DNA of 64,000 nt from contig CBDCTK010000002.1 of the NCBI GenBank assembly GCA_965222225.1, positions 4,448,001-4,512,000 on the forward strand. Direction: 5' to 3'. The stretch's first letter is position 1; each line of letters opens with the position of its first letter. Under the pieces are notes generated by a model. The model had not been told where the DNA came from, ran no database searches, and worked only from the letters and a program-made list of their open reading frames with translations. Source of the stretch: Candidatus Poribacteria bacterium. Lineage in GTDB: Bacteria; Poribacteria; WGA-4E; JAJDTR01. This document shows, piece after piece, positions 15,285 to 57,210 of this stretch. Both the position numbers and the translations under genes were made by a program.

Positions 15285-15413
15285 CCAAGTCTCTCTGACA
15301 CGTTTTTTAACGCTCGCGTTAAGATCCTGTTTGAATAATCGGTGGCAATGCCATTTTTAGTCATTTGTCGGAAGTTTTTTCATGTTTTCATTGTTGGCTG
15401 CTACAAACCTGTA

Positions 15414-15449
15414 GGATCTCTATCGCAGTCGCTATTCGCTCCCTTGATC
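15414..15449 (+). repeat. 36-bp insertion unit U1
   Basis: GGATCTCTATCGCAGTCGCTATTCGCTCCCTTGATC. Confidence 0.85.
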
Positions 15450-15476
15450 CCACGCTGGGGCTTTTAGAGGCTGGTA

Positions 15477-15512
15477 GGATTTCTATCGCGCTCATTATTC
15501 ATTCGCTTGATC
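15477..15512 (+). repeat. 36-bp insertion unit U2, splitting a REP stem
   Basis: GGATTTCTATCGCGCTCATTATTCATTCGCTTGATC between GGCTGGT and GCAGTGCGCACCCTAC. Confidence 0.85.
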
Positions 15513-15574
15513 GCAGTGCGCACCCTACAAACTGTACTTTTCAACCAGGCTCTAAGAGTTTAATTGAATAATAA

Positions 15575-46774: not shown

Positions 46775-47818
46775 TAGGAGTTACGCAGTTGGCTGAAGCG
46801 TATAAAGAGGTTGTGCCAAATAAGCCCGTACCGCATCTCTGACAATAGAGAGTTTTGCATCAAACCAACTGATACCGGTATGATAGCAATAGTGCTCAAT
46901 TCTCAGAAAGGCTCTCAGCGCTAAACCGATATGATTTCTTTGAGTGCGAGCAGAGCGCACTTGTGCGCGTTCAATGCCAACAAATTGCTTAATCCCGCGA
47001 TGATATTCTTCTATTGTCCAAGACCATTCGGCATATTTGAGACGCGTCAATTCGTCCATCTGTAAATCATTCGTTGCCCAATATTCAATGTCACCTTCTG
47101 GAGTGTCAACCTTAAATACTCGAATCAATCCATAGCCTTTGAGATGGACAATTGTACCTGTTGATTCACTCGGAAGCGTACTCACCGGACGGTTACCGGA
47201 ATAATCTTTACTGACAAGTCGGTTGGCAGCTAGACGAGTAAGCCACTTCCAACCATGACCTCGCACCGCTTTTAGATTCTTTAGACTGGCATACCAACTA
47301 TCAAAACACACACATTCAGGAGCAAAACCGCGTGTTTTCGCTTCTTCAAGCATGGCGCGGAAATGCTCATTCTTCGTCAAGCCGTCTTTGGCTTTATCAT
47401 AGATTCGATAATCACACGGAATATGTCTATCGCCATCCGTCCAGAGCAAAGTGACCAAGTTAATCCCATTCACAACTCGGTGGTGTTTCCCTGACCAGTG
47501 TTTTGTCACGAGTTCAATCTTTTGTGAATAAGGTTTATCCAGAGTCGAGTCATCTATAACTAAAATTCCGGATTCTAATTTCACCTGATTTCTCGATTCT
47601 TGCCACAGTTTGCCAGTATCGGGTTCCTCTCGATGCAAGAGCCGTGTTATCGAATCGTGAGCCGGAGGATTATCAGCTTGGGGTTGAACTTTTTCCGATT
47701 CAAGACAACTGTAACTTTTCTGAGCGGCTACCAAGAAATCAATATAGTCAGTGTCAGTATATTTAGGGGGATTCATACTCAAATTATAACCTATTTTCAC
47801 TCAACTGCGTAACTCCTA
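46775..47818 (-). mobile_element. IS701-like insertion sequence, copy 2 (inverted relative to copy 1)
   Basis: Same TIRs and length; 5-bp target duplication TATAC (46770-46774 / 47819-47823). Confidence 0.92.
46781..47800 (-). CDS. IS701-family DDE transposase
   Basis: Protein identical to 15593-16612 in the ORF track. Confidence 0.9.
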   Translation of the reverse strand: MKIGYNLSMNPPKYTDTDYIDFLVAAQKSYSCLESEKVQPQADNPPAHDSITRLLHREEPDTGKLWQESRNQVKLESGILVIDDSTLDKPYSQKIELVTKHWSGKHHRVVNGINLVTLLWTDGDRHIPCDYRIYDKAKDGLTKNEHFRAMLEEAKTRGFAPECVCFDSWYASLKNLKAVRGHGWKWLTRLAANRLVSKDYSGNRPVSTLPSESTGTIVHLKGYGLIRVFKVDTPEGDIEYWATNDLQMDELTRLKYAEWSWTIEEYHRGIKQFVGIERAQVRSARTQRNHIGLALRAFLRIEHYCYHTGISWFDAKLSIVRDAVRAYLAQPLYTLQPTA

Positions 47819-48030
47819 TATACAACAGAATTTATCCAAGAATAATACCTTATTCACGTAATTTCGTCAAGGGCAATGCAAAGCGTCCTCTACCTCGATT
47901 TTGGTCGAACGTGCAATGATTAGGGCGTGGAGGAAAGAGAGGGGATTGGACGGATGGAAGGATGGAAGAGACGTGGAGACAGAGTTTTCGAGAAGAAACA
48001 CGGATTCCATTGTCTGAACCGCGGATTAAG

Positions 48031-48066
48031 GGATCTCTATCGCACTCACTATCCGTTCGCTTGATT
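48031..48066 (+). repeat. 36-bp insertion unit U6
   Basis: GGATCTCTATCGCACTCACTATCCGTTCGCTTGATT within a run of short GGATT repeats. Confidence 0.85.
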
Positions 48067-48206
48067 AGATTAAAGGATTTCACGGATTAAACGTGCCTAA
48101 TCGGTGTTGTATTGCGCCTTGAAGATTCGTATTGCGGACCGGTTTACTGCGGAGTCGCAATGGAGGCCTGGGTTGGCTGTACGTTGTGGGCAACGCGTTT
48201 GGATAT

Positions 48207-48390
48207 GGTGGGCAATGCCCACCCTACAAAAGCTCTATCGCACGGGATTTTCTATGGGAATGCTATCGCATTCGCTATTCGCTCATTTGATCCTTCCTTA
48301 ATCAGTCGGTTGATCGGTCGATATTCACTCCCTTGATCTATTCGCTCAGTCGATCCCTCAATCTATATTGTTCGTTTGATTCCAATCTAC
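48207..48390 (+). repeat. REP followed by a nested stack of 36-bp units (full U7 at 48257-48292)
   Basis: GGTGGGCAATGCCCACCCTACA; left halves AGCTCTATCGCAC and GGGATTTTCTAT; U7; right halves ending TTGATC/TCGATC/TTGATT at 48315, 48338, 48355 and 48381. Confidence 0.82.
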
Positions 48391-48555
48391 GCTACTGAAT
48401 TATTCCGTATGCGTTCAGTGTTTGTATCTGTTATAATCTGGAAAAAGCATTCTCCGTTCTAGTCCAGTGGCAGATTAGCAATCACTGAAAAATGTAGTGT
48501 CCCTGAAATCCCTATCGTCGTGCGAAACCGAAACGTACGGCATTTGTCATGAGGA

Positions 48556-49734
48556 ATGAAAATGGATATCTATAAATCACCTTCAGCGGTGGATTCTGAA
48601 GGAACAACCAAGTTCTACCGTGCCACGGCATTTGCCGACGCGAAGCCGGAGCTTGCGGCGCCAGGGGCTACGCCAGAGCGTTTGGAACACTTGAAAGAGC
48701 ACGGTTTCGTCATTATCACCGACTTCGTTGGCAGCCCTTGGATTCCGATTCTGCGTGAAGCCGGTAGGCGTGTCACCGAGGCATGTACTCCCGAAAACGG
48801 CTATAGTAAGATTGACTGCTCCAAAGGCTATGTGCATCGGGCAGCAGAGGATGAGCCCTGGGCAATTCGGGGATTGATTCATCCGGCTTTCGGCGAGCCG
48901 AGTTTTGCCGAATTTTATGGTTCGCCGGAGTACCTTCGCTTTGTCCATGATTGGTGCCACGGTTTGCAACCGGAGGATCTTGTCATGCTTCCGATGCTCC
49001 TCTGGTGCAATCCTAGGAGGAACGAGAATGGACCAAGTTGGCATCGAGACACGACATGGTGGGGCACTGGAAAGGGTTACTTTGCGCAGCGCCCGGAACA
49101 GGAGGGACCGGAAGCCTATTCGGAGGAGGTTGAGAGGCGCCGCTGGAAAGAAATCCAAGCAGAAAACTTGAATTCAATTGTCGAGCGGAATGGCGTGAGC
49201 ATGTTTCTTGCGCTTGCCGATGATGAGTGCCATGAACTGATTCCCGGTAGCAACCATCGGTGGCGGACGCCGTTTGAGCACGATGTGCTACTACCGAAAT
49301 CCATGAAGGAGCAGGGAGTGCCGTACACGCCGAGTTGGAACGGCGTCGACCCGTTGCCGAATCAGGTCGCCATTCGGTTAAAGCCCGGGGAAGCACTCAT
49401 CCGGAACGGCGTTACCATCCACACAGGGCACACTGTGCCTGATCGCGAGCGCAACACACTGGCACTCGGTTGGAGTAAGTGGTCGGGGCCTTTCACGGGG
49501 GAGTCAGCCATGTCGGATGTGCGTAACGCATGGCAACTCGATCTTGTCGTGCGTGAGGCGTTGCCGTACGAATGGATGAAGACTACTTGGGATCGTTGGG
49601 CAGAGACCGTGAAACTAGGGGATACGCTTGAGGACCGCTACACCCCGTTTGACATCAATAACATCAAGGCGGGGCAAATACTGGGTTGGCGAGGCGAGTT
49701 GGAGCGTCAGGCTGCGGCGGCTGGGGATGCGTGA
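48556..49734 (+). CDS. Phytanoyl-CoA dioxygenase (PhyH)-like Fe(II)/2OG oxygenase
   Basis: L.EHGFVII, WHRD (HxD), IPGS.H, L.PGE......IH.G. Confidence 0.75.
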   Translation: MKMDIYKSPSAVDSEGTTKFYRATAFADAKPELAAPGATPERLEHLKEHGFVIITDFVGSPWIPILREAGRRVTEACTPENGYSKIDCSKGYVHRAAEDEPWAIRGLIHPAFGEPSFAEFYGSPEYLRFVHDWCHGLQPEDLVMLPMLLWCNPRRNENGPSWHRDTTWWGTGKGYFAQRPEQEGPEAYSEEVERRRWKEIQAENLNSIVERNGVSMFLALADDECHELIPGSNHRWRTPFEHDVLLPKSMKEQGVPYTPSWNGVDPLPNQVAIRLKPGEALIRNGVTIHTGHTVPDRERNTLALGWSKWSGPFTGESAMSDVRNAWQLDLVVREALPYEWMKTTWDRWAETVKLGDTLEDRYTPFDINNIKAGQILGWRGELERQAAAAGDA

Positions 49735-56964: not shown

Positions 56965-57210
56965 GAGCCTGTTTGAAAAGTGCAGTTTGTAGGGTGCGCA
57001 CTGCGCACCAGCCTCTAAAAGCCCCAGAGGGGCGGAAGGTGTATAGAAACACCAAAACCCCGTGCACCTAAGCCCCAGCGTGGGATCAAGGAAGCGAATA
57101 GCGACTGCGATAGAGATTCTACAGGTATGTAGCAGCCAACAATGAAAACATGAAAAAACTTTTTACAAATGACCAGAAATGGCTTTGCCACCGATTATTC
57201 AACCTGGCTC
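56965..57210. mobile_element. MITE homologous to 15323-15552 (inverted), with intact REP (56989-57009) and unit U9 (57084-57119, minus strand)
   Basis: TIRs GAGCCTGTTTGAAAAGT / ATTATTCAACCTGGCTC, TTA on both sides; two GCCCCAG hairpins. Confidence 0.85.

Follow-up and report, generated by a model that had tools for sequence, protein, structure and literature searches.

What kind of event leaves, between two genes, a row of broken copies of one short repeat in which left-hand pieces stand on one side of an intact copy and right-hand pieces on the other? The question is raised by the genome of a Candidatus Poribacteria bacterium, a symbiont of sponges. In a 64,000-nucleotide stretch of it, called the window below (assembly GCA_965222225.1, contig CBDCTK010000002.1, positions 4,448,001 to 4,512,000 of the forward strand), a 36-nt repeat is represented at positions 48233–48381 by one full unit, with two left pieces and three to four right pieces. 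The original prediction was that repeated insertion of the repeat into its previous insert had made this locus grow from the inside, to a depth of up to about five units. Taken as a whole, the best explanation of our observations, and one that we consider highly probable, is that copies of a non-coding mobile repeat of 36 nt are nested in this stack.

A family of 36-nt units that carry a small hairpin

The unit is a non-coding sequence of 36 nt with the consensus GGATCTCTATCGC nn TC nn TATTC nn TC nn TTGATC, in which nn stands for each of four dinucleotide slots. Full-length matches of at least 18 bits number 1271 in the 5.70-Mb genome (G000) and 0 in the reversed genome, and segments of at least 20 bits number 2054 against 55. 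On the large contig, 839 of the 954 strong full units lie outside stop-to-stop frames of at least 120 amino acids. A degenerate-pattern search detected the family in 15 of 41 related genomes, G000 included, with 530–1220 copies in each of the nine congeners, 3 copies in the single genome of a sister genus and about 190–200 copies in each of four genomes of a genus in another family; the same search did not find it in the remaining 26 genomes of the order.

Several known kinds of repeat were considered. Terminal inverted repeats of 15–30 bp and target-site duplication, which are traits of MITEs, were not seen, the ends having only GGATC/GATCC. A tandem repeat or minisatellite was rejected, since full units follow each other directly in 19 cases against 486 adjacencies of a full unit with a left or right piece, and neighbouring slots differ; at the stack, TRF reports only a 7-nt sub-repeat of 3.4 copies. 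Rfam 15 gave 0 matches at E up to 1 in 47800–48600, and promoter and terminator scans returned nothing. An independent 23-nt module made of the right half was not supported either: solitary 14–36 pieces number 29, about 16 of which (counted by eye) lie behind the 5′ end of an inverted unit. Such solitary right parts often stand directly behind that end, in a head-to-head composite that shares one 5′ domain. Among neighbouring full units within 200 nt, 190 are direct and 38 inverted.

The slots had been described as variable. They do differ between neighbours, but this is not free variation, as they are covarying stem pairs. In 957 units, which carry 242 slot haplotypes, the pairs 14–30, 15–29, 18–26 and 19–25 have a mutual information of 0.77, 1.00, 1.14 and 0.42 bits, and are Watson–Crick in 663, 867, 881 and 792 units, against 288, 370, 337 and 465 expected from column composition. 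These four are among the five pairs of highest mutual information (the adjacent columns 2–3, with 0.43 bits, rank fourth), and all others are at 0.21 or below. This covariation shows that the four dinucleotide slots are the two 2-bp stems of a small hairpin, with an invariant TC opposite TC between the stems, a TATTC loop and, 5′ of the stem, a conserved CTATCGC that forms an unpaired, tag-like stretch.

Non-canonical combinations on the written strand are A.C or C.A in 418 cases and G.T or T.G in 74. Because the former correspond to G.T wobbles on the complementary strand, we infer that the purine strand is the one that folds, presumably as 5′-nn GA nn GAATA nn GA nn, with a tandem G.A mismatch between two 2-bp stems, the inner of which is closed by a pentaloop. 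Tandem G.A pairs are known for their stability. The minimum-energy fold of the purine strand, computed with RNA parameters, contains 2.7 of the 4 pairs against 0.8 for the other strand, the energies being weak, and in nearest-neighbour folding with DNA parameters neither strand did better than shuffles.

Layout of the stack

The stack occupies part of the intergenic region 47801–48555, between a DDE transposase gene and a 392-aa gene. The unit was modelled as a position-weight matrix of 38 columns built from the genome copies, with positions numbered as in the original prediction, and pieces were called by local segment scoring on every diagonal of this model; all of them are on the + strand (Table 1). 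This scoring bears out the coordinates of the original prediction and its readings of right pieces as 14–36 and 20–36, which are correct. Three pieces, the two lefts and the degenerate right at the end, do not reach significance by themselves (14–17 bits), and segments of at least 14 bits number 8240 in the real genome against 4549 in a reversed-genome control. These three pieces are counted only because they abut a full unit; at 16 bits, the reversed-genome control contains one adjacency of any kind among 1073 chains.

Table 1. Features of the stack and of its surroundings (window coordinates unless a contig is named), with the candidate enzyme gene
Feature	Position	Strand	Evidence
DDE transposase gene (PF01609/PF13546; IS4/IS5-like)	46781-47800	-	Pfam
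Solitary full unit, 165 nt upstream of the stack	48030..48065	+	52.4 bits
GTAG-type REP hairpin GGTGGGCAaTGCCCACC and CTAC tail; left border of the stack	48207..48227	+	Inverted arms; exact match
Left piece a, unit 5-15 (CTCTATCGC and slot 1 AC)	48233..48243	+	Segment 48230-48243 = unit 2-15, 16.9 bits
Left piece b, unit 0-10 (G GGATTTTCTAT)	48244..48255	+	Segment 48245-48255, 14.2 bits
Innermost full unit, positions 0-36	48256..48292	+	Segment 48256-48293 = unit 0-37, 48.9 bits
Right piece b, unit 14-36, or 13-36 with a shared C before it	48293..48315	+	Segment 48292-48316 = unit 13-37, 29.9 bits
Right piece c, unit 14-36	48316..48338	+	Segment 48315-48338 = unit 13-36, 28.4 bits
Right piece d, unit 20-36, rare C at 32 (TCGATC)	48339..48355	+	Segment 48338-48356 = unit 19-37, 22.9 bits
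Filler CCTCAATCTATAT	48356..48368	+	No segment of at least 12 bits; absent from G005
Ancestral flank including CCAATCTAC	48369..48397	+	Present in G005 with a 7-nt indel
Degenerate right piece, unit 25-36, slot 4 GT	48370..48381	+	Segment 48370-48380 = unit 25-35, 15.0 bits
392-aa gene	48556-49734		No Pfam match
Intact Y1 gene, 157 aa	G000 contig 2, 3080258-3080728		

By their break points, the pieces can be paired into at least three nested layers. Left piece b, which stops at the common 10|11 break, has right piece b as its partner (break class 10,13) around the full unit, whose slots AT/GC/GC/AT give four Watson–Crick pairs out of four. Left piece a stops at the common 15|16 break, and right piece d is a possible break-point partner for it (class 15,19). 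Its slot 1 AC fails to pair with slot 4 AG of right piece d; read by hand under the genome-wide covariation rule, it pairs with slot 4 GT of the degenerate right piece and with no other right piece. The C at position 32 of right piece d is found in 46 of the 1271 units of the genome.

The stack is unbalanced, with two lefts and three to four rights, and this counts against nested insertion. Right piece c has its own complete hairpin, in which slot 1 GG pairs with slot 4 CC, and its left partner is absent; unbalanced stacks resembling this situation occur elsewhere in the genome. The two unmatched right pieces would be either copies truncated at the 5′ end or right halves that lost their left counterparts when these, devoid of slots and nearly identical, collapsed by slippage, and the filler that follows right piece d is possibly the remnant of a left piece (TCTAT). 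Three levels are supported at this locus, and not the predicted depth of up to about five, right piece c lacking a partner and the last degenerate piece being ancestral flank. The reading of CCAATCTAC as a REP-like tail is also weak, as the sister species has CCAATCTGC there.

Two other observations concern the surroundings of the stack. Short GGATTAA(A)/CACGGATTAA motifs (48020–48105) flank the solitary unit and recur beside units in this genome and in congeners; they could represent another family of small repeats. Upstream of the 392-aa gene, 9 of 10 species share a conserved promoter-like block, ATTATTCCGTATrCG...CTGTTATAAT (48398–48441), and the stack sits just upstream of this block.

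Order of the pieces and matching of nest partners

Genome-wide, segments were classed as left (L), full (F) or right (R) at a threshold of 16 bits and chained when within 3 nt of each other. The frequent transitions are FR (274), LF (212), RR (120) and LL (62), while RF (25), FF (19), LR (12), RL (11) and FL (5) are scarce. The order lefts, full, rights, which had been noticed at one locus, thus dominates the genome-wide parse of stacks, and head-to-tail arrays of full units are rare. The excess of RR over LL and the many FR chains without a clear left piece are to be counted against nesting.

If one unit has been split by another, its two pieces should add up. In 76 of the 89 L-F-R chains, the right piece begins 1–4 positions past the end of the left piece, and the main break classes are (15,16) in 20 chains, (10,13) in 17, (16,19) in 13, (11,13) in 8 and (15,19) in 7, so that 27 of the 89 nests have their break ending at 15. 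The class of the left piece and that of the right piece go together (31, 6 / 1, 44; p 1.8e-15). In the (10,13) class, the missing positions 11–12 are often absorbed by the last bases of the inner unit, so that the outer unit, examined by eye, continues as ...TTGAT|CGC nn, intact.

The requirement that slots 1 and 4 pair provides a second test of left and right partners, independent of their break points. The slots of partners matched by nest order are Watson–Crick in 80 of 132 cases, with 23 further A.C combinations, against 45–67 of 132 in five shuffles; in the (15,16) class they are Watson–Crick in 29 of 40 cases, with 6 A.C. When the left slot is compared with slot 4 of the inner unit, 29 of 88 pair. 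Pairing between partners is below the approximately 80% of intact units, which indicates that certain chains have been wrongly paired or are something other than simple nests. Nested self-insertion is supported by these observations. A rise of divergence from the consensus toward the outside, also anticipated, was not found: framework mismatches are 4.1% in outer and 3.7% in inner units (62/1519 and 56/1519) over 76 nests, with 27 against 27 nests (p 0.82), in a comparison that is biased to well-kept outer halves.

The locus in sister species

Orthologs of the 392-aa gene (88–92% aa) are present in all nine congeners. In the closest of them, G005, the REP hairpin at 48207–48227 is conserved and is followed by one 5′-truncated unit, TCACTATACGTTTGCTCGAT (unit 16–35), and by the tail TGTT..GTTTGATTCCAATCTGCGCTACTG; in G000, the stack that separates REP from tail measures 149 nt. 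In seven of the remaining congeners the site has a different REP variant and no unit, and G009 has a left piece and a full unit farther upstream. Since the rare C at 32 is common to the G005 piece and to right piece d, these two are taken as orthologous, which from this shared base is probable. It would follow that the inner pieces (48244–48338) are specific to the G000 lineage, and that at least two insertions took place at the locus in this lineage after its split from the closest relative.

Other nests were compared with G005 in the same way. At one pair of loci (L036/L039) the flank-side pieces are common and the interior is wholly different, at another (L053/L058) the outermost left piece is common and the interior different, and at a third (L055/L061) the whole nest is conserved with about 97% identity. 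Old pieces outside and new pieces inside are thus seen at three of the four informative loci, the present stack included, and the reverse at none; the count of four leaves aside L037, L052, L056 and L057, for which there was no synteny or no match, and L054, which is not alignable. The order of the pieces, their break points, the pairing of their slots and the sister species support the proposal that growth occurred from the inside, by insertion into earlier units.

In the conserved nest L055/L061 (G000 contig 2, about 1513457), one right piece differs at 5 of 11 positions, comprising slot 2, loop and slot 3 (TC TAATC AA against CT TATTC AG), a difference that may result from local conversion or from hairpin replacement. 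Near the stack itself, a 300-nt probe of the DDE gene (47501–47800) was not matched in any of the nine congeners within the 1.5 kb that precede the orthologous gene; this gene is probably a lineage-specific IS insertion.

Insertion sites

For 43 filled chains, a paralogous (rather than orthologous) empty site is present in the genome. At most 4 nt of the target are missing in 23 of these 43 sites, none shows a target duplication of 3 nt or more, and microhomology of 1–2 nt is found at two filled/empty paralogous pairs. The common right junction is ...TTGAT followed by C(GC) of the target. Units are inserted at sites of the ...T|CGC type that belong to other small hairpins, two REP families among them, either in an arm or at the foot, with 0–3 target bases gone. 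Their targets are the arms or loop of GTAG REPs (GGTG|CGCAGTGCGCACC...), a second hairpin family (CACCTGT|CGCCCCnCTGGGGC), other small hairpins and inverted units at ..G|CGATAGA; inside units, the preferred sites are after position 10 (CTAT|CGC) and after position 15 (CAC|TC). The contexts of 962 chain ends include 321 REP-A tails, 82 REP-B motifs and 39 inverted units, for background rates of 1.6%, 0.6% and 0.3%, respectively.

An orthologous case is provided by a hairpin just 3′ of an IS200-like gene, which contains a unit with identical slots in G000, G001 and G005 and is empty in G002, G004 and G009. A search of congener loci for further sites empty relative to G000 yielded only three pairs, one of them empty. 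The rule that units sit in hairpin loops, judged from perfect complementarity of the flanks, was not retained: a stem of at least 5 bp is present in 94 of 935 chains against about 44 in shuffles, a weak signal because insertions remove part of an arm.

Within the window, a TGTC-tagged hairpin family, CACCTGTCGCCCCnCTGGGGCTTT, forms a larger composite repeat (15300–15560, +; 56990–57200, −). In the 15.4-kb copy, a unit at 15477–15513 (+) interrupts the REP arm (GGTa[unit]GCAGTGCGCACC), and the paralogous 57-kb copy lacks it, so that the two form a filled/empty pair. The 57-kb copy has 51 extra nt relative to the 15.4-kb copy (57020–57070, −), bounded by the direct repeat CTGGGGCT, which look like a duplicated or inserted REP-B module. 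The CACCTGTCGCCCCnCTGGGGCTTT hairpin, inverted, directly flanks the IS200-like Y1 gene in G000 and at the 13 loci of other genomes examined. According to excerpts of Di Nocera 2013 (PMC3733652), REPs tagged with CGTC or TGTC lack an associated transposase.

Alternative explanations

The right pieces could have arisen locally, by partial tandem duplication or slippage, or by deletion between microhomologies (ATC/ATCGC) in arrays of full units, with no nesting involved. Such an origin would account for the excess of rights over lefts (RR 120, LL 62) and for right piece c, which is a self-contained 14–36 piece; one chain of three right pieces with identical slots resembles a true tandem duplication, and the unit end GATC(GC) has 3–5 nt in common with positions 9–13 (ATCGC). 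We nevertheless find it improbable, because adjoining pieces of the stack differ in nearly all slots, lefts before and rights after full units are far commoner than the reverse, the break points and slots of left and right pieces match, and FF arrays, the presumed precursor, are rare (19). Less probable again is copy-choice template switching, in which a polymerase that stalls at the hairpin of a unit copies a distant unit and returns, producing nest-like mosaics with no dedicated transposase. The clustering of break points at the foot of the hairpin (10|11, 15|16), the small number of target bases lost at junctions, the absence of an enzyme co-occurring with the unit family and the link between orientation and replication asymmetry are all in keeping with it, but whole units with foreign slot haplotypes are found at non-homologous sites (REP loops, the hairpin by the IS200-like gene), and a distant switch with a return at exact unit ends would have been needed hundreds of times.

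It is very improbable that the array is not selfish DNA but a functional element maintained by selection, as a structured RNA or as an array of protein-binding sites. The framework mismatch of about 4% in all classes and the position of the stack upstream of a conserved promoter-like block are what one would expect of such an element; against it stand the absence of an Rfam match and of a terminator-like site, the independence of unit orientation from flanking genes, and a stack that is absent or different at the same gene in the nine congeners. That faulty assembly of a repeat-rich region produced the stack is hardly credible. Short-read contigs (Logan) from four runs of four studies were compared with it, leaving out contig joints, which reflect repeat cross-mapping in metagenomes. 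They cover 48201/48213–48280 (X10 and X7, 1 difference each), 48267–48337 (X9, 3 differences), 48287–48700 (X6, 0 differences) and 48317–48410 (X7, 1 difference), so that overlapping contigs reproduce 48201–48280 and 48267–48700 with 0–3 differences. The support expected from reads is thus obtained piecewise, but no single contig of the four runs covers the entire stack. In addition, like stacks exist at many loci, one of which is 97% identical in G005.

Mechanism and candidate enzyme

Nested self-insertion, the reading that we prefer, may be extended to a mechanism. Each unit would bring its own target, a tag-like TAT|CGC followed by a hairpin. The resemblance between the unit's CTAT|CGC with its hairpin and the other targets (CCTGT|CGC with a hairpin) would explain self-nesting, and new copies would tend to land in the newest intact unit, making the locus grow from the inside. 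The weakest step, which we propose tentatively and with appreciable doubt, is that movement passes through a single-stranded DNA stage and depends on an enzyme acting in trans, a Y1 HUH (IS200/RAYT-like) transposase being one possibility. A more specific version is unlikely, and is given here as a speculation: the 36-nt unit could be a minimal single-stranded DNA transposon, with a purine-strand hairpin zipped by tandem G.A and a TATC tag, mobilized by a host Y1/HUH-type enzyme that cuts T|CGC next to hairpins.

The orientation of the chains bears on this proposal. It tracks the sign of the local GC skew in 649 of 974 chains (odds ratio 4.0, p 1.5e-25). Chains in REP-A, REP-B and 'other' contexts all show this direction, and the 39 inverted-unit chains show the opposite one (odds ratio 0.25, p 0.06). 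Units are oriented independently of the direction in which the flanking genes run. An orientation linked to skew and not to genes favours a DNA-level, replication-linked process over an RNA function. The strand found on the G-rich strand is the pyrimidine strand, not the folding purine strand, which does not fit with a precise HUH reaction; selection against hairpins on the lagging-strand template could explain this placement. The loss of 0–3 nt at junctions is also unexpected for a precise HUH cut-and-paste. Along the 5.6-Mb contig 2 of G000, the GC skew flips sign many times (24 bins), which suggests many inversions or an unusual replication layout.

The genome has five PF01797 (Y1) genes, and inverted units are found near three of them. 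The product of the intact gene (157 aa; Table 1) passes the IS200/IS605 model (65.8 bits, cut-off 55) and fails the RAYT model (30.6, cut-off 80). Its closest solved relatives by sequence are PDB 2fyx and the 2xm3 group, deposited as 'transposase', which we take to be ISDra2 TnpA, followed by the ISHp608 transposase. The possibility that the unit is the REP of a RAYT was rejected, since the conserved flanks at 14 loci are another hairpin, CACCTGTCGCCCCnCTGGGGC, with a unit inside it only in some species. Units stand beside Y1 genes because they have inserted into the genes' own inverted, TGTC-tagged flanking hairpins. For the three Y1 lineages tested, no co-occurrence with the unit family (15 of 41 genomes) was detected, homologs being present in 25, 3 and 5 of the 41 genomes; those of the intact gene, in 25 genomes, include all seven genomes of a genus without units. 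According to excerpts of Messing et al. (2012, PMC3479197), TnpA-REP of E. coli depends on the tag and on the stem mismatch, and cleaves at C|T sites that flank the hairpin on either side. In the unit, the break at 15|16 is C|T, as in these cuts, and that at 10|11 is T|C.

Comparison with known systems

The nearest published kind of element is that of SDR4-6 of Nostoc punctiforme and its relatives, which, like the Poribacteria unit, are very small, non-coding, dispersed and apparently mobile. Small dispersed repeats (SDR) were reportedly described in 2008 by Elhai and co-workers in heterocystous cyanobacteria; they are dispersed repeats of less than 100 nt, with original families of 21–27 nt. 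SDRs are reported to nest in some cyanobacteria. We know of no enzyme for the cyanobacterial SDRs, and their mechanism is, to our knowledge, still open. As for SDRs, the mobility of the Poribacteria unit appears from filled versus empty sites and from a species-specific stack. The unit differs from SDRs in its length (36 nt against 21–27 nt), in belonging to another phylum, in its four covarying pairs and conserved tandem mismatch, and in having no known HIP1-like target; SDR families are defined by sequence in cyanobacteria. The function of SDR5, of 21 nt, is given as unknown in excerpts of PMC13756078, and excerpts of PMC4390886 place its insertion precisely between nt 3 and 4 of GCGATCGC, that is GCG|ATCGC. 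Read on the other strand, this site is ..AT|CGC, like the CTAT|CGC site of the Poribacteria unit.

The unit also resembles the elements of the REP/BIME/REPIN-RAYT systems, which, in the parts consulted of Bertels and Rainey 2011 (PMC3116915) and of PMC3479197, are intergenic imperfect hairpins of 20–40 nt, in hundreds of copies and without target duplication. Self-nesting of the kind seen here is not described for REPs in those parts of the two papers. In excerpts of Di Nocera et al. 2013 (PMC3733652), REPs tagged with GTAG or CGTC lie inside small palindromes that serve as targets, in clusters interleaved with other repeat families. In the present genome, by contrast, the target includes the element itself, which results in ordered stacks of left, full and right pieces; self-nesting is not reported in those excerpts, and the text of that paper does not contain the word 'nested'. 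The tag by the stem is TATC in the Poribacteria unit and GTAG or CGTC/TGTC in REPs. In contrast with REPINs and BIMEs, units are mostly direct neighbours and not inverted dimers, and, in contrast with REPIN-RAYT systems, no Y1 gene has units as its own flanks and no RAYT co-occurs with them.

Elements of the IS200/IS605 family (IS608, ISDra2) move by a single-strand 'peel and paste' mechanism, and the strand bias of IS608 and ISDra2 is opposite to that of a unit that folds on its purine strand. The unit differs from this family in having no transposase gene, one hairpin instead of two, and junctions that lose a few bases. Features common to both, as judged from excerpts of PMC3479197 and PMC6006769, are hairpin-dependent recognition, the absence of duplication, a replication-strand bias and a short specific sequence beside the insertion. 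A partial literature search for Poribacteria with REP, REPIN or RAYT, or with repeat or transposase, found no paper.

Very small mobile repeats are poorly understood. The family described here offers a structural signature, preferred sites for cutting and for landing, a replication-linked strand bias and many datable events in ten sister species. If the unit were indeed a minimal single-stranded DNA transposon, copies could land at any hairpin with a T|CGC foot, whether a REP that belongs to another system or the unit itself, and self-nesting would be a built-in consequence; these Poribacteria would then provide a tractable system for mobility of the SDR type, with hundreds of dated events, ten sister species, defined cut sites and candidate enzymes. 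For annotation, nesting explains the odd half-repeats found by REPs and the breaks of short-read assemblies at such places. More generally, small hairpin repeats can target one another, and the intergenic 'repeat jungles' of these symbionts are layered insertion histories, readable as strata.
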